A DNA stretch of 64,000 bases from an uncultured Methanosarcinales archaeon (GCA_964419615.1 CAYQPU010000001.1:17266-81265); one strand, 5' to 3'. Shown: positions 35,884 to 43,408, counted from the first letter of the stretch. The notes: generated from the letters alone by a model not told the origin. Numbers and translations are program-made.

Positions 35884-37041
35884 TTATAAGATATTATTTA
35901 ATTCTTCTACTGTTCTATCAACATGTTCTTTTTGTATTATTAATGGTGGTAGGAATCTAAGTACTGTTGATGATGCCGGAGCTGCTATTATTCCTTTTTC
36001 CTGAAGTTTTTTTAGGTATTCACTGCTTTTCTTTTTTAGATCTAGTCCTATCATTAGACCTGCTCCACGTACATCTCTTATCAGAGGAGAATCAAGATTG
36101 TTTAGTTCTGACATAAAGTAACTTCCAATTTCCTTACTATGACTTAATAGGTTGTTTTGCTCAATGTAATTGATTGTTGCAAGGCTTGCAGCACATACTA
36201 ATGGATTCCCTCCAAAAGTAGAGCTGTGAACACTCTTACCTACAGTTTCTGCAATTTCTTCAGTAGTGAGTGTTGCACTCATTGCAAGACCATTTGCTAT
36301 TCCTTTGGATAAACAGATTATATCTGGTTCTACATTGTAAAGTTCTGAAGCTGTCCAATGTCCTGTTCGAAATCCTGTTTGGACTTCATCAAAGATTAAT
36401 ACTGTTTCTGTGTCATTGCAGATGTCTCTAGCTGCTTTAAGGTATTGCTTTGTTGCAAGTTTTATTCCTGATTCTCCCTGGATTGGTTCAAGGATTAATG
36501 CGGCTGTATCTTTATTCACTGTTTCTTTTAATTCTTCCTCATCATTAAATCTGATTTGCTCAAAGCCAGGAATTAGTGGTAAAAATGGTTTTCTGTACTT
36601 AGGACTTGAAGTTGTTGCTGAGAGTGTAGCCAAAGTCTTTCCATGATAACCTAATTTTGCGGATATTATCTTTCTTCTTCCAGAATAGATCATTGAGAAT
36701 TTTATAGCTGCTTCAACTGCTTCTGCACCAGAGTTTCCAAAGTAGATTCTATTTAGATTCTTGGGTGTAATACTGATCAATTTTGCTGCTGCTTTTTCAC
36801 GGACTTTATTATGAAAACTCCAATGTATGTTTGAGATTTTGGATAGTTGATCTGTGATTGCGCTGTTTATAGCTTTACAGTTATGACCCAAAATACTAAC
36901 CCCAATGTTTGTCATTAAGTCAAGATATTTATTTCCCTTATCATCATATAGATAGACTCCGTTTCCTCTTGTGATGTTTAGTTCTCTAACTGGAAAGGTT
37001 GAGATCATTATTTTTTTATTATCTAAGTTTTCATTATTCAT
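35884..37041 (-). CDS. lysJ: [LysW]-aminoadipate semialdehyde / glutamate semialdehyde transaminase
   Basis: Class III PLP aminotransferase (EPIQGE, FDEVQTG, SKGIANG, HSSTFGGNP) in a LysW cluster. Confidence 0.88.
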   Translation of the reverse strand: MNNENLDNKKIMISTFPVRELNITRGNGVYLYDDKGNKYLDLMTNIGVSILGHNCKAINSAITDQLSKISNIHWSFHNKVREKAAAKLISITPKNLNRIYFGNSGAEAVEAAIKFSMIYSGRRKIISAKLGYHGKTLATLSATTSSPKYRKPFLPLIPGFEQIRFNDEEELKETVNKDTAALILEPIQGESGIKLATKQYLKAARDICNDTETVLIFDEVQTGFRTGHWTASELYNVEPDIICLSKGIANGLAMSATLTTEEIAETVGKSVHSSTFGGNPLVCAASLATINYIEQNNLLSHSKEIGSYFMSELNNLDSPLIRDVRGAGLMIGLDLKKKSSEYLKKLQEKGIIAAPASSTVLRFLPPLIIQKEHVDRTVEELNNIL

Positions 37042-37823
37042 TGTATCACAGTTCCTTTTTTTATATCTTTTATTGGGTGCTCAACTCTCCCATCTGTAAT
37101 GTAAACTGTTGTTTGACTATTTTCAAATAGTTTTCTAAGGGCAAGGATTTTGCGTTTTATTCTGCCTTCTACTTGTTGCTCGCGCTGCTCTAATTCATCA
37201 CAGTTTATTTCCTTTACAAGTGAATCAGGATCATTAAGATTATCTAATAAACCCTGAGCTTCTATTAATTGGATTATTTTGTCTGCAGGTATTGCTTGGT
37301 GAATTACATTTACTATATTATCATTTTCAGAGTTTATTGCAAACCCATTTTCATCAACTATGGGTACAGTAATTACCGGAGTGTATCCATTATCTAATAA
37401 TAGCCTGAGTAGGGCGGTGTTTACAGATTTTGGTTTACCTGAAAAATCTCTTACAATTTTTAGCTTGTTATTTTCTTTAATCCTAATCCCATTGTTTCTA
37501 CTTCCTTGAATTAATCTTCCATCTAAACCAGTTAAACCTATTGCGTTTATTCCATTTTGTTGACATAGTTCAACAATTCTTTTGTTTTTAAGGCCAGAGT
37601 ATGCCATCATCATTATATCAAGGGCATCCTTGTCTGAGAATACACTTGAATAGCCAGATACTGATTGAATTGTTTTTTTTGGTTTGTCTAATTGCTCAGC
37701 AATTTTATCTCTTAGAGCATTTGCTCCATGAACTATTATGAATTTTTCATCTAGTTCTGATAGATCCTTAATTATCCCTTCAATGTTAATATCTGCTCCT
37801 CCTCCAATCTTTACAATTATCAT
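37038..37823 (-). CDS. lysZ: [LysW]-aminoadipate / glutamate kinase
   Basis: IVKIGG, VHGAN, SVSGYSSV segment, NSENDN amino-acid-kinase fold. Confidence 0.9.
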   Translation of the reverse strand: MIIVKIGGGADINIEGIIKDLSELDEKFIIVHGANALRDKIAEQLDKPKKTIQSVSGYSSVFSDKDALDIMMMAYSGLKNKRIVELCQQNGINAIGLTGLDGRLIQGSRNNGIRIKENNKLKIVRDFSGKPKSVNTALLRLLLDNGYTPVITVPIVDENGFAINSENDNIVNVIHQAIPADKIIQLIEAQGLLDNLNDPDSLVKEINCDELEQREQQVEGRIKRKILALRKLFENSQTTVYITDGRVEHPIKDIKKGTVIQ

Positions 37824-38479
37824 TTAAAACACCTTGTTGTGTTGTTAGGTATAGGTTTTGATTCATTGTTAAATTTTTCTGAACATATTACCAATTTGTC
37901 AGTTTCACTAAGGTGCATTGTGAAATATTCTGATCTTTCATTAAAATTTGTTGATAAAAATATGTTTTTAGTTTGCATATTTACAATTACCAAATTTATT
38001 GCTTTAACAGTATTTGTTCTACATACAAGATAATCAATTCCTTTTTTAATTGCATTTAATAAAGAATCTGATCCACTTGATTGTTGTAGTTCAGAGTCTC
38101 GAAATCTTTTGATAAGATTAAATATTTTTTCAGCACCAATTCTTCCATGTTCCCTTATTCTAACTCCTCTTAATTCTCCATTAAACACAAAGACTAGTTC
38201 ATTATCAGTAAACGGCATGTTGTTTTCAATTACTATGTCTTTGTCTTCAAATGCACTTCTTGCATGAACAATTAGTAAGTTTGTTTTTTCAAATTTCTCA
38301 AAATCATCTTCCCAGATAGGATTAATGTTTTTGTAAAATTTCCAACCTCCTGAAAAAAAGGCACACCCCCAACCATGGCCTTGATACTCTTTGCTGTTTT
38401 GGCACAATTTAGCAAATTTTTCTAGATAGGGAGCTATTTCAAACTCAGTGTTTGATTTGATTATTAGTATTCTACACAT
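37820..38479 (-). CDS. Class II glutamine amidotransferase-like Ntn hydrolase (EgtC/YafJ-like)
   Basis: N-terminal M-C-R, GHGWG, HARSA, NNMPF, FNG; GRIGAE in place of the usual GxTDSE. Confidence 0.82.
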   Translation of the reverse strand: MCRILIIKSNTEFEIAPYLEKFAKLCQNSKEYQGHGWGCAFFSGGWKFYKNINPIWEDDFEKFEKTNLLIVHARSAFEDKDIVIENNMPFTDNELVFVFNGELRGVRIREHGRIGAEKIFNLIKRFRDSELQQSSGSDSLLNAIKKGIDYLVCRTNTVKAINLVIVNMQTKNIFLSTNFNERSEYFTMHLSETDKLVICSEKFNNESKPIPNNTTRCFK

Positions 38480-38495
38480 TTTTTATGTTGAGTTA

Positions 38496-39527
38496 TTAAA
38501 CTGGATGAAGGCCTGGAAATTCAAGTCCAAGGGTTTCTTTGAAACCACTCATTAGATTCATTGACTGAACTGCTTGACCTGCTCCTCCTTTCATTAGATT
38601 GTCAATAGCGCCCATTACAACTAACCGGTTTGATTTTGGATCTACCTCAAATCCTACTTCACATATGTTTGTTCCTGCAAGTATTTTTGGTTCAGGGTAT
38701 CTATATACTCCAGTTCGCTTTTTTACTAGTCTTACAAAAGGTTCATCTTTGTAGGCTTGCCGATATGTATTCCAGATTTGTTTTTCATCAACTCCATCTT
38801 TTAAAAAAAGGTGAGATGTTGCCAAGATTCCTCTTATTAATTCAATTGAAGTTCCTGAGAAATGAACAGTTGGTTTGTGGCGAAAGTTTAGTTCTTGCTC
38901 TACTTCTGCTGTGTGTCTGTGACCTGTTGGCTTAAATGATCTTACAGCATGTGATCTTTCTGAGTGATGCGAGGCAAGGCTTGGCTTGTTTCCTGATGCC
39001 GAGCTTCCTACCTTTGCTTCAGTGATCACTGTTGATTCAACAAGGTTGTTTTTAAACAAAGGATATAGTCCTGTGATTGTTGCTGTGGCTAGACATCCTG
39101 TTCCTGCAACTAGATCTGCTTTTTTTATTTTTTCTCTATGTAGTTCAGCCATGCCATAAACAAATTTACTTAAGTATTCTGGATTAGGATGATCTTCACC
39201 ATACCACTTTTGATAGTCTTCTTTTTGTCTTAATCTAAAGTCTCCGCTAAGATCAATTATTTTTCCTGCTTTTTGCTGGAGCTCTGTTATTTTTTTCATT
39301 GCTAATCCATGGGGCAGTGCTAAAAATAATATGTCTGATTCTTCTAGATCATTTATTGTTGAAAATTTCAAGTTGTGGCCTCGAAGGTTTGGATGTACAT
39401 CATGGACAAATTTTCCTGCAAATCTTTCTGAGGTTACTTGTTTTAGTTTTACTTTTGGATGTCCTAAGAGAAGTCTTACAGCTTCTCCACCTATGTAACC
39501 GCTCGCTCCAACTACACTTACTTTCAT
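38496..39527 (-). CDS. lysY: [LysW]-aminoadipyl / glutamyl-phosphate reductase
   Basis: VGASGYIG, LALPHG, DLSGDFRL, GTGCLATA, GKV-like KVGSSASG, DNLMKGGAGQA. Confidence 0.92.
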   Translation of the reverse strand: MKVSVVGASGYIGGEAVRLLLGHPKVKLKQVTSERFAGKFVHDVHPNLRGHNLKFSTINDLEESDILFLALPHGLAMKKITELQQKAGKIIDLSGDFRLRQKEDYQKWYGEDHPNPEYLSKFVYGMAELHREKIKKADLVAGTGCLATATITGLYPLFKNNLVESTVITEAKVGSSASGNKPSLASHHSERSHAVRSFKPTGHRHTAEVEQELNFRHKPTVHFSGTSIELIRGILATSHLFLKDGVDEKQIWNTYRQAYKDEPFVRLVKKRTGVYRYPEPKILAGTNICEVGFEVDPKSNRLVVMGAIDNLMKGGAGQAVQSMNLMSGFKETLGLEFPGLHPV

Positions 39528-40366
39528 TTTTTTGCCTCCTTGATTAAATAATTAACAATTTTTTCTGGAATATTAACTCCAGTTGTATCAATGCTGTTTC
39601 TAAATTCCATTGTATGATTGATTTCATTTATTATCATTCCATTGTCTGTTTCAAATATATCCATTGCTAAGATTCCACCACCAACTGCTTTAGCAGCCTT
39701 TAAACAGATATTATTGATCTCTTCTGTTATTGGGCAGTTAGTTGCCGTGCCACCTCTTGCTGTGTTGGTTATCCAATGGTCTGAAGCTCTGTAAATTGCA
39801 CAAATTGTTTCATTTCCTACTACAAATGCCCTTATATCCCTTCCTGGTTTTTTTATGTATTCATTAATAAAAAAAACTGAGTGATGGTATGAACCAAGTA
39901 CTTGTTTGTGTTCAAGTACTGTTTCTGCAGCAGCTTCATTATCAATTTTTGACAAGAGTCTTCCCCAAGAACCTATTGCCGGTTTTAAGACTACTGGATA
40001 ACCAAATTCTTGTATTGCTTTCATTGCGCTTTCCCTTGAAAATGCAACTTTCACTCTTACCGCAGGTACTTTGTTTTTTTCCAAAGCAAGTGTTGTTAAT
40101 ATTTTATCTCCACATGTTCGTACTACTTTTGGTTTATTTACTATTTTTATATCATGATCATCTAGGATTTTTGTGATATGTCTTGATCTTGAAAAATTGA
40201 TGCTTCTATCTATTATTATATCTGTTTCAAAGACTGGTGTTTTTTCCAAACAAAAAGTTAAATCTCTATCATCAATTCTTACTAATTCAGCTTTGCTCTT
40301 CTTTATAGTCTCAAATAGTAATTTCTCTTCACGTCTAACCCTTGAGCATATGACTCCAATTTTCAT
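39524..40366 (-). CDS. lysX: Aminoadipate-LysW ligase (ATP-grasp)
   Basis: SRVRREEKLL, KPAIGSWGRL, WITNTARG, EINHTMEFRN. Confidence 0.92.
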   Translation of the reverse strand: MKIGVICSRVRREEKLLFETIKKSKAELVRIDDRDLTFCLEKTPVFETDIIIDRSINFSRSRHITKILDDHDIKIVNKPKVVRTCGDKILTTLALEKNKVPAVRVKVAFSRESAMKAIQEFGYPVVLKPAIGSWGRLLSKIDNEAAAETVLEHKQVLGSYHHSVFFINEYIKKPGRDIRAFVVGNETICAIYRASDHWITNTARGGTATNCPITEEINNICLKAAKAVGGGILAMDIFETDNGMIINEINHTMEFRNSIDTTGVNIPEKIVNYLIKEAKK

Positions 40367-41193
40367 TTTAGGCTCACCATGTAATCTATAATATCATCTG
40401 TTATTTTTTCATCTAGATGAGGGAAGTAAACACTAAATTCAGGTGTATAATCTACTTCTAACACTTGTATTCCTTTACGAGATTCAAGCATATCAACACA
40501 TACAAAATCTCCGTTTACTGCATTTTTTGCCTTTAAGGCCAATTTTTTGATTTTTGGAGTGACTGTGCATTTAGATATGCTTGCTCCTTTGTCTATATGA
40601 GTTATCCAATGTTTTGAATTACGGTAAATTGCATATACTTTGTTCCCTACAACAAATACCCTTATGTCTCTGCCGTGTTTCTCAATGTATTCTTGAACAT
40701 AGTATACTGAGTGGTGATATGTTCCAAGATTCTTTTTATGATAGACAATTGCTTCAGCTGCTTCTTTATCATTGATTTTTGCAAGAAGTTTACCCCAAGA
40801 GCCAATGGCTGGTTTTAGTATGACTGGGTAACCCATTTCCTCGATTATATCAAGTGCTTTTTCTGGTGTGAAGGCTATTTGTACTTTTGGTGTTGGAATT
40901 TTGTTCATGATTAAGGCTTCTGTAACTGAGAACTTGCTGCCGCAGATTTGAGCAGTTCTACCTGAGTTTACTGTTTTTACTCCAAAACTGTTTAGAATAT
41001 TAAGTGCATACATTGCTGTTAAATGATTCATGCATCTTTCTAGAACAATATCATGATCAAATCCATTTTTTCCTATGTCAAATAGTAGATCTTGCACTTT
41101 AATTAAGTCTAGTTCAATGCCTTTTTTATTAGCTGCAGCTATTAGAAGCTTTTCATCTTTTCTAATTCGCTCATATAGCATTCCAATTTTCAT
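40363..41193 (-). CDS. Second, divergent LysX/ArgX-like ATP-grasp ligase
   Basis: ERIRKDEKLL, KPAIGSWGKL, but WITHIDKG and EVDYTPEF. Confidence 0.82.
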   Translation of the reverse strand: MKIGMLYERIRKDEKLLIAAANKKGIELDLIKVQDLLFDIGKNGFDHDIVLERCMNHLTAMYALNILNSFGVKTVNSGRTAQICGSKFSVTEALIMNKIPTPKVQIAFTPEKALDIIEEMGYPVILKPAIGSWGKLLAKINDKEAAEAIVYHKKNLGTYHHSVYYVQEYIEKHGRDIRVFVVGNKVYAIYRNSKHWITHIDKGASISKCTVTPKIKKLALKAKNAVNGDFVCVDMLESRKGIQVLEVDYTPEFSVYFPHLDEKITDDIIDYMVSLK

Positions 41194-42323
41194 CGATATA
41201 CACCCGGTAATTGTACACTTGGATTAACTTCTCTAATTATTCTCACAATCTGTGAATCTCCTAATACATTGCTATCTCTATTTTTTATTAAACTAATTAC
41301 CTCACTAAAAAATTCTTCTGGAAGCTCTATTCCCATCAGATCCAGCTTATATTGTAGAGCTGGCTTACTTACAAATTTATCAATTATAATTTCTCTTTGG
41401 CCACCTACCAAATCAGTAAACCCATTTTCATAATGGTCAGGACTTGATAAGACTGCTGACACGTGTAATCCTGCATTATGAGTAAATGCATAACCCCCTA
41501 CAAAGGGTTCCTGCTCTGGTATTAAAATTGCAGAATATTTTTCCACAATAGAAGATAATTCTTGAATTACATCAAAATTCCATTCATTTGTAACATTGAA
41601 ATCATGTTTTAAAAGAGTACACACACTTGCAAGTGAAGCTATTCCTGTTCTTTCACCTAGTCCATTAACTGTTACATCAATTACACTTGCTCCAGCTCTG
41701 TATGCTGCAATTGAGTTTGCAGTCGCCATTCCTTTGTCATTATGACAATGTACATGAAGATCTACATCTAGTTCTTGTGATAGTCTTAAAACATAGTCAT
41801 ACATTTGCCAAGGTAGCATACAGCCTGCTGTATCAGCAATACTGATTCTGTCTGCTCCAGCTTGCACAGCAGCTCTTGCTACTCTTACAACTCGGTCAAA
41901 ATCACTTCTAACAGTGTCTTCAGGTGTGTATCGAACTTTTAATCCATATTGTTTTGCATGTTTTATTGTATCAGTTATGATTCTTGTTGCATCTTCTTCA
42001 GATTTTCGATACATCTCTTCCATTCTCTTATCTTTAAGACTGTAAAAAATTCCAACCCAGTCTGCTCCAAATTGATGGGCATAGTCTATGTCAGAAGACA
42101 CAGCCATACAGTGAACTAAGAATTCGGCTCTAAGATCAAGCATGCAGATTTTCTCAACAGCTTTTCTAATACTTGGACTAACTGCTGGGTGACCTACTTC
42201 AATTATTTCAGCACCAAATTCATCAAGAAGCTTTGCAATTTCTATTTTTTCATTTACTGTAAAGCTTACATATGGTGTTTGTTCACCTTCTCTTAGTGTA
42301 CTGTCCAATATGGCAATACTCAT
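41190..42323 (-). CDS. Homocitrate synthase (DRE-TIM metallolyase)
   Basis: LDSTLREGEQ, HVHCHND, GLGERTG, THNAGLH; start moved to ATG 42323, which overlaps the lysW stop. Confidence 0.85.
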   Translation of the reverse strand: MSIAILDSTLREGEQTPYVSFTVNEKIEIAKLLDEFGAEIIEVGHPAVSPSIRKAVEKICMLDLRAEFLVHCMAVSSDIDYAHQFGADWVGIFYSLKDKRMEEMYRKSEEDATRIITDTIKHAKQYGLKVRYTPEDTVRSDFDRVVRVARAAVQAGADRISIADTAGCMLPWQMYDYVLRLSQELDVDLHVHCHNDKGMATANSIAAYRAGASVIDVTVNGLGERTGIASLASVCTLLKHDFNVTNEWNFDVIQELSSIVEKYSAILIPEQEPFVGGYAFTHNAGLHVSAVLSSPDHYENGFTDLVGGQREIIIDKFVSKPALQYKLDLMGIELPEEFFSEVISLIKNRDSNVLGDSQIVRIIREVNPSVQLPGVYR

Positions 42324-42481
42324 TGACCCCAATCCTCTTCAGCCTCAGGAGCAAGTTCTAATGCTAAAGGATCCAAGGCTCTTACTTCTAGTTCAGCTCC
42401 ACAATCCCCACAGTTTACAACTTCTCCCACTTCAACTTCTCCGATTTTAATATTTGCTCCACATTCTGGACAATCTACCAT
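42320..42481 (-). CDS. lysW: Amino-group carrier protein LysW (53 aa) ending EEDWGQ
   Basis: Not in track. MVDCPECGANIKIGEVEVGEVVNCGDCGAELEVRALDPLALELAPEAEEDWGQ; two CxxC; GGAGGT site. Confidence 0.95.
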   Translation of the reverse strand: MVDCPECGANIKIGEVEVGEVVNCGDCGAELEVRALDPLALELAPEAEEDWGQ

Positions 42482-42751: not shown

Positions 42752-43408
42752 ATGGTAACCATTTCCCATATTGTTTCAGAAAAATTGTCCAAACGCCCAT
42801 TTTTGCAGGAAGCTCTTTCAAGAGGACTGATCAACTACGGTGCTTTAGCTGATGATTTAATTCCCATAGTTGAAACAACTCTTCACAAAAAAGTCAAACA
42901 TTCTGCAGTGATGATGGCGATTAGAAGATATACTGAAAATGTCCGGAAAAATGAGTTTAAGCAAATTGAATTTTTTAAAGGTACAGATTTGAGTGTCAGA
43001 TCTAATTTATGTGAGATTACTTTCCAGCGTTCAACCAAAACATTGGACAAAATAATGTTGATATATGATATTATTAATCCTAATCAAGGAGATATGCTTA
43101 ATATAATTCAAGGTAACTATGAAATAACAATTATTTCAAATCAATCTCTAAAAAAACAGATTATCAAGATAGTTGGCAAAAGTAATATGATTAAGTGCTT
43201 TGATAAGCTTTCTTCAGTTTCAATTCGTTATCGTGAGGAGATCATTCACACACCTGGTTTTATTTTGGCTTGTGTGAAAGCAATATCCTGGGAACAGATT
43301 AATATTGTTGAAATTGTATCAGCAATGACTGAATTAACTTTTATTCTGGCAGAAAAAGATGCAATTCCTGCCTTTGAGATTCTACAAAACTTAATTTCCA
43401 GCAATTAG
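42752..43408 (+). CDS. Putative amino-acid-binding regulator (N-terminal helical domain plus ACT-like domains)
   Basis: GLINYGALA...AVMMAIRRY N-terminus and aspartokinase-like ACT C-terminus (INIVEIVSAMTELTFIL); divergent from lysW. Confidence 0.7.
   Translation: MVTISHIVSEKLSKRPFLQEALSRGLINYGALADDLIPIVETTLHKKVKHSAVMMAIRRYTENVRKNEFKQIEFFKGTDLSVRSNLCEITFQRSTKTLDKIMLIYDIINPNQGDMLNIIQGNYEITIISNQSLKKQIIKIVGKSNMIKCFDKLSSVSIRYREEIIHTPGFILACVKAISWEQINIVEIVSAMTELTFILAEKDAIPAFEILQNLISSN

Follow-up and report, generated by a model that had tools for sequence, protein, structure and literature searches.

A stand-alone Ntn cysteine hydrolase encoded within LysW operons as a candidate functional replacement for LysK

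The amino-group carrier protein LysW carries biosynthetic intermediates, and LysK, a metalloenzyme of the M20 family, cleaves the gamma-glutamyl-Lys/Orn amide at its C-terminus. LysX is an ATP-grasp ligase, and a Gln side chain is not activatable by an enzyme of this kind. Related chemistry is carried out by EgtC, the gamma-glutamyl-hercynylcysteine sulfoxide hydrolase of the ergothioneine pathway, whose reaction is the hydrolysis of a gamma-glutamyl amide and not an ammonia transfer, and by Dop, which in actinobacterial pupylation deamidates the C-terminal Gln of Pup and later cleaves a gamma-glutamyl isopeptide; Pup itself is encoded with Gln or Glu depending on the species. In class-II amidotransferases such as GlmS and PurF, free glutamine is held through its alpha-amino group by an Asp and through its alpha-carboxylate by an Arg, and an Asn-Gly pair forms the oxyanion hole. 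Where LysK is missing, the LysW (AmCP) pathway counts as incomplete in annotations. LysK is the only hydrolase named in a 2025 study of how the LysW pathway evolved, and our full-text literature search returned no paper in which LysW was connected with an enzyme of the Ntn or amidotransferase type.

Within the window (the whole stretch of DNA analysed here, 64 kb from an uncultured Methanosarcinales archaeon), eight packed genes on the minus strand form an operon with the order lysW-HCS-lysX-lysX-lysY-hydrolase-lysZ-lysJ, and Pfam and NCBIfam family assignments agree with the order that an initial annotation of this DNA had given around the embedded Ntn gene. The operon begins with lysW (42320-42481, -), which codes for a carrier protein of 53 aa (TIGR01206, 76.3 bits; cut-off 53.2), followed by a homocitrate-synthase-like gene (41190-42332, -; HMGL-like and HCS_D2 by Pfam/NCBIfam), the real start of which is probably an ATG overlapping the lysW stop codon. 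Then come two ATP-grasp ligase genes, namely a lysX/argX paralogue (40363-41193, -) that scores 271.6 bits on TIGR02144, just below the cut-off of 275.6, and lysX, encoding the LysW-amino acid ligase (39524-40366, -; TIGR02144, 327.9 bits), together with a lysY/argC-type reductase gene (38496-39527, -; TIGR01850, 396 bits). The gene studied here (37820-38479, -) was assigned by translation, Pfam and NCBIfam searches, alignment, AF2 modelling and Foldseek to a stand-alone Ntn (class-II amidotransferase-type) cysteine hydrolase of 219 aa. It is followed by lysZ, encoding the [LysW]-aminoadipate/glutamate kinase (37038-37823, -; NF010659, 245 bits), and by the final gene of the operon, a lysJ/argD-type aminotransferase gene (35884-37041, -; Pfam/NCBIfam), 3' of which there is no lysK, the next ORF lying on the opposite strand. 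Adjacent genes overlap by 4 nt throughout, the hydrolase gene and lysZ included, with the sole exception of a 16-nt gap 5' of the hydrolase gene; the hydrolase gene is translationally coupled within the LysW operon.

The hydrolase belongs to a small and distinct family, with 255 representatives at E <= 1e-3 among 1.84 billion representative proteins, the members of which are mostly 205-230 aa long and start with MC. Its AF2 model (pLDDT 97, pTM 0.92) is that of a protein with the four-layer alpha-beta-beta-alpha Ntn fold. In a Foldseek search the top solved match of this model was EgtC (PDB 4zfj/4zfk/4zfl; TM 0.73-0.76, E 1.6e-11), and the next were the glutaminase domains of PurF, GlmS and GFAT, with all matches between E 1e-11 and 1e-7. 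At the level of profiles the protein falls below the Pfam thresholds for GATase_4 (PF13230; 20.3 bits, threshold 23) and GATase_6 (PF13522; 20.6 bits, threshold 27), does not reach the cut-off of the EgtC model TIGR03442 (30.1 bits, cut-off 218.65), and shows no homology to M20 enzymes, with no M20 profile match and a different fold. EgtC has in common with it the stand-alone class-II Ntn hydrolase architecture, a length of about 220-230 aa and the N-terminal Cys, and differs from it in sequence (only 14-16% identity) and in its egt gene context.

The translation bears out the motifs previously noted in this protein, that is, an MCR start, HARSA at 72-76, FNG at 99-101 and GRIGAE at 112-117. 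In an alignment of 79 family sequences, M1, C2, R3, W56, R74, N100, G112 and G115 are invariant, and Q33, G36-W37-G38, H72, A73, P89, F99, G101, N162, Y185 and S200 are nearly so. Thus, of the features of class-II amidotransferases, the Cys directly after Met1, the Asn-Gly pair and the Arg are present, and the Asp of xTDSE and a fused or partner synthase domain are absent from this single-domain protein. Among solved structures, the best sequence-profile match is PDB 3mdn (SPO2029; E 2.4e-10), which, like 1te5 (PA1307, YafJ type), is an uncharacterised protein that shares the fold, the single domain and the N-terminal Cys. 3mdn differs from the hydrolase in keeping the Asp of STDSE, with which G115 aligns in the profile alignment; the replacement of GxTDSE by GRIGAE, and with it the loss of the Asp that had been proposed, is therefore real in that G115 is invariant in this column. 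This difference holds against the free-glutamine-binding relatives GlmS, PurF and 3mdn. To our knowledge, proteins of the 3mdn/1te5 type have no link to LysW clusters. The roles of R74 and N100 were assigned on the basis of what is known for GlmS and PurF. On these residues, a retained Arg and Asn-Gly pair together with the missing Asp would fit a gamma-glutamyl substrate in which the alpha-carboxylate is free and the alpha-amino group is peptide-linked, and the C-terminal Glu or Gln of a protein would be exactly such a substrate.

We then looked at the genomic contexts of homologues, for which an association with lysW clusters had been predicted. None strays from such clusters: all 41 genomic homologue loci, comprising 37 GTDB loci and four relatives of the window genome, lie within LysW clusters and keep the arrangement lysX-lysY-hydrolase-lysZ-lysJ, in most cases with lysW adjoining, and no M20 gene was found within 10 kb of the hydrolase gene in the homologue loci checked. 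These loci span four bacterial phyla as well as archaea, the GTDB carriers being delta-proteobacterial/Thermodesulfobacteriota MAGs, Gemmatimonadota, Gammaproteobacteria and one Parasphingorhabdus. More distant members, at about 32% identity, are encoded in the order lysW-HCS-lysX-lysY-lysZ-lysJ-hydrolase or lysZ-lysJ-hydrolase, and this position 3' of lysJ, the usual slot of LysK, is also occupied by the hydrolase gene in two metagenomic clusters. Since the gene is found at another position of the same cluster, it has been kept in the cluster through rearrangements.

A general Peptidase_M20 search was dropped as a test for LysK, as it returned 4-18 paralogues in each of five carrier genomes, and a LysK-specific model was used instead, with canonical LysK defined as a TIGR01902 match over the curated cut-off (163 bits). 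Measured in this way, LysW-bearing genomes from two samples (n=18) fall into 15 that encode the hydrolase without LysK and three that encode LysK without the hydrolase, with none encoding both and none encoding neither, as expected if the hydrolase tracks LysW genomes that lack canonical LysK; here "no canonical LysK" rests on the curated score cut-off, the bacterial carriers having many other M20 paralogues. One sample was the order of the window genome, in which six of 61 genomes encode LysW (G000, which is the window genome, G001, G002, G006, G007 and G035). Five of these carry the hydrolase (G000, G001, G002, G006 and G035) and one, G007, carries only LysK (TIGR01902, 320 bits), its cluster ending in lysY-lysZ-lysJ-lysK with the hydrolase absent; this five-to-one split includes the unpublished genome G006 and is four to one when that genome is set aside. 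In the carrier G035 (91% complete), the Peptidase_M20 profile found nothing. In the other sample, of 151 Gemmatimonadota genomes, LysW was found in 12, with the hydrolase in ten, LysK in two and no overlap; the unpublished genomes of this sample (G118 and G158) fall only among those lacking LysW. In three additional bacteria with the hydrolase (G063, G064 and G065), nothing scored above the LysK cut-off. The same clean partition is thus seen in one archaeal order and in one bacterial phylum, although these counts overstate the number of events, because related genomes are not independent.

The initial annotation had reported an M20 peptidase to be missing. This stands for the operon and for the 64-kb window, in which a Peptidase_M20 profile search found none, but the genome (1.48 Mb) is not free of M20 genes, having just two Peptidase_M20 matches, on contigs C5 and C45. 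Neither is a canonical LysK, as no match over the TIGR01902 cut-off was found elsewhere in the window genome. The gene on contig C45 lies between argH and carA (L002, 14-3559: an argF fragment at the contig start, argH, the M20 ArgE/DapE-family deacylase gene and carA), and with the LysK models TIGR01902 and NF003367 (cut-offs 163 and 363) its product reaches 96-99 bits. The GC content of this contig (0.345) gives no sign of contamination. The gene is unique to the window genome among its 61 relatives, bar a match of 35% identity in G052, which has no LysW, and it has no orthologue in the hydrolase carriers G001, G002, G006 and G035. We therefore rejected this M20 enzyme as the general missing LysK, given its scores below the LysK cut-offs and its absence from the other archaeal carriers; in the window genome itself it could in principle hydrolyse LysW-ornithine. 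The second M20 gene is paired with serS, an arrangement conserved in G000, G001, G002 and G006 (L001, contig C5 26-2364; L218, L219 and L220), with proteins that are 47-65% identical. Conceivably, this enzyme acts on LysW-ornithine in the window genome, and it may be the LysW hydrolase in the family formed by these four genomes.

The gene content of the window genome (99% complete) also bears on the product of the operon. No aconitase-family gene and no isocitrate/isopropylmalate-dehydrogenase (Iso_dh)-family gene was found in it, so that alpha-aminoadipate is not makeable by the known route, and lysine was rejected as the operon product here on these grounds. A canonical lysA was likewise not found. 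Because argF, argH and carA are present and the route from homocitrate to 2-oxoadipate is missing, ornithine is the likelier product, and the LysW cluster of this genome probably makes ornithine for arginine, as judged from gene content. The operon nevertheless contains its homocitrate-synthase-like gene, in a genome without the known steps that lead from homocitrate to 2-oxoadipate. In G007, the homologue of this gene product carries a C-terminal AsnC/RAM ligand-binding domain.

The LysW protein encoded in the window is unusual in its C-terminus. It ends in EDWGQ, the last codon being CAA followed by TGA, whereas LysW carriers, which consist of a Zn-ribbon and an acidic tail, usually end in EDWGE and so present a C-terminal Glu gamma-carboxylate; the protein scores above the TIGR01206 cut-off but has Gln as its terminal residue. 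By scanning metagenomes for EEDWGQ immediately before a stop codon, we identified about 75 genuine LysW genes, and all 22 of the Gln-ended clusters that were long enough to judge carry the hydrolase gene (between lysY and lysZ in 20, after lysJ in two); none of the 22 has an M20 gene. Conversely, all 77 database relatives (47-100% identity) of one LysK-type LysW end in EDWGE, the Gln set being drawn from a metagenome scan and the Glu contrast from database relatives, which are different collections. The cluster context of three of these 77 Glu-ended controls comprised one clean lysWXYZJ-M20 cluster, one contig end and one cluster broken by IS elements. In one metagenomic genome (L240, 9001-12222), a LysK-type lysW-lysX cluster is interrupted just after the lysX start by several DDE transposase genes.

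In the genome-based set, which was found via the hydrolase itself and is therefore unbiased for the LysW terminus, LysW is Gln-ended in seven of 38 hydrolase clusters and Glu-ended in about 31. The same-genus relative G001 has a LysW ending in EDWGE. Among the Gemmatimonadota, one of the ten hydrolase carriers (G209) has a Gln-ended LysW and both LysK-type genomes have Glu-ended proteins. A tree indicates that the terminus has switched between E and Q at least five times. The predicted co-occurrence with LysW ending in Q was thus recovered in one direction: no Gln-ended LysW turned up in a cluster lacking the hydrolase, the only gene that always accompanies such a carrier, and the LysK-type clusters observed all had a Glu-ended LysW. 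As the ATP-grasp ligase cannot activate Gln, a Gln-ended LysW needs a deamidase; however, because about five-sixths of hydrolase clusters have a Glu-ended LysW, deamidation alone is not the hydrolase's reason to exist.

The initial annotation had left the choice between a LysK replacement, a LysW-Gln deamidase and both, and the comparisons between genomes favour both, release being the general role. A gamma-glutamyl amidase acting on the LysW C-terminus is the simplest account, because it covers the exclusion of LysK, the use of the LysK slot, the association with Gln-ended LysW and the changed Asp. We consider it likely that the enzyme hydrolyses [LysW]-gamma-ornithine/lysine and also deamidates LysW-Gln. 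Following removal of Met1, Cys2 would attack the carbonyl of the gamma-glutamyl amide, with Asn100 and Gly101 providing the oxyanion hole and Arg74 holding the free alpha-carboxylate of the terminal residue; Gly115, in place of the Asp that binds an alpha-amino group, would give room for the LysW peptide chain. In its general role the enzyme would free the finished amino acid from LysW, that is, carry out the LysK reaction with an unrelated protein. In its second role it would convert LysW-Gln to LysW-Glu, the form required by LysX. No gamma-glutamyl amide is smaller than that of a terminal Gln, so one enzyme could do both, and a Gln-ended LysW would be tolerated only in hydrolase clusters because there the hydrolase would supply LysW-Glu.

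Co-folding of the hydrolase with LysW had been suggested as a check. The pair scored 0.51, with the best of three controls at 0.09; at least 90% of contacts recurred between runs, and the partner pLDDT was at least 79. In calibration, 58 of 80 solved complexes and two of 110 mismatched pairs attained the mark, but at scores of 0.60 or less, the range in which this pair falls, it was reached by only seven of those 80 complexes, together with both of the mismatches that passed. The co-fold model therefore lends the pairing of hydrolase and LysW weak support.

An alternative is that the hydrolase serves maturation only, deamidating LysW-Gln, and that the product is freed by one of the M20 enzymes encoded elsewhere, next to argH-carA or serS. 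The Gln at the end of the window LysW, an M20 gene set among arginine genes and the restriction of Gln-ended LysW to hydrolase clusters would all be accommodated by such a division of labour. It is harder to reconcile with the roughly 31 of 38 hydrolase clusters, that of G001 included, whose Glu-ended LysW needs no deamidase, or with the carriers in which the argH-linked enzyme has no orthologue (G001, G002, G006 and G035), the last of which lacks any M20 gene, and it leaves the mutual exclusion of hydrolase and LysK unexplained; we regard it as improbable. The same exclusion, together with the association with Gln-ended LysW, is equally unaccounted for if the protein is an ordinary glutaminase or amidotransferase subunit that hydrolyses free Gln and supplies the pathway with ammonia, or with glutamate from which LysJ would take its amino group. 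In favour of a glutaminase are the fold and catalytic residues, which are those of class-II amidotransferases, and the weak GATase_4 and GATase_6 matches. In this family, however, the Asp that holds the alpha-amino group of free glutamine is an invariant Gly, no synthase domain is fused or adjacent, the neighbours all being known LysW-pathway enzymes, and we know of no amide-nitrogen step in the LysW pathway, so that of the alternatives weighed here we give this one the least credence.

It is also conceivable that the hydrolase is an editing or recycling enzyme that disposes of LysW adducts that are mis-loaded or dead ends, such as those in which LysX has ligated a wrong amino acid, with release left to something else. 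Its chemistry would be the same as in the preferred account, and the weak LysW co-fold is just as compatible with it; yet a release enzyme would still be required, and none is conserved in the hydrolase-carrying genomes, while a gene that takes up the LysK slot in distant clusters is more in keeping with a core step than with an accessory function. We see little chance that this is the main function. Returning to the amidase that releases the amino acid and deamidates LysW-Gln, we are slightly inclined to go further and to propose that one Ntn cysteine hydrolase both activates the carrier (LysW-Gln to LysW-Glu) and unloads it (LysW-gamma-Orn/Lys), following a logic like that of Dop and Pup that would have evolved independently.

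By analogy, the logic of hydrolase and LysW would thus parallel that of Dop and Pup, but the proteins differ. Dop is a glutamine-synthetase-like ATP-binding enzyme and not an Ntn hydrolase, and Pup is a degradation tag, whereas LysW carries biosynthetic intermediates. With LysK the hydrolase shares the proposed reaction and pathway step and, in some clusters, the slot after lysJ; it differs in being a cysteine Ntn hydrolase of unrelated fold rather than a di-metal M20 enzyme (ArgE/DapE family; TIGR01902, NF003367), so that the likeness is one of functional analogy only. In comparison with EgtC, the proposed substrate is the C-terminus of a protein.

If the proposal is correct, a second, widespread class of LysW pathways exists in bacteria and archaea. 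Assigning the hydrolase family would close the gap in pathways that lack LysK in the Gemmatimonadota, in Thermodesulfobacteriota-like lineages and in the Pseudomonadota, at the loci seen here, and in some archaea. Enzymology would gain a clear example of non-orthologous displacement, with a metallopeptidase on one side and a cysteine Ntn hydrolase on the other, and a deamidase activity would explain the otherwise puzzling Gln-ended carrier. Metabolic models of supposedly auxotrophic small-genome archaea would change as well, the window genome appearing able to make ornithine and arginine, and a new enzyme would be on offer for cutting gamma-glutamyl-linked cargo off carrier proteins.

Some further features of these clusters were noted. 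The identities between the window operon and related clusters look mosaic (window 37038-40366), LysX and LysJ being nearer to the family relative G002 (L005: LysX 73%, LysJ 59%; hydrolase 41%, LysZ 44%), and the hydrolase and LysZ nearer to the cluster of a delta-proteobacterial MAG (L008: LysX 54%, LysJ 45%; hydrolase 53%, LysZ 63%). In the hydrolase tree the archaeal family is grouped weakly (89/79). From the sequences, a cassette exchange between the archaeal cluster and bacteria is possible.

Upstream of lysW in the window lies a divergent DUF7523-like gene (42752-43408, +; PF24367, 27.4 bits). A member of this family, with an ACT domain, is also encoded divergently from lysW in the LysK-type relative G007 (L213, 1791-2450, +), and the DUF7523-like gene may encode an amino-acid-sensing regulator of the operon. 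In G007 the lysW region is adjoined, in addition, by an ORF resembling ADP-ribosyltransferase exoenzymes (L213, 2602-3138, +; PF03496, E 6.5e-16).
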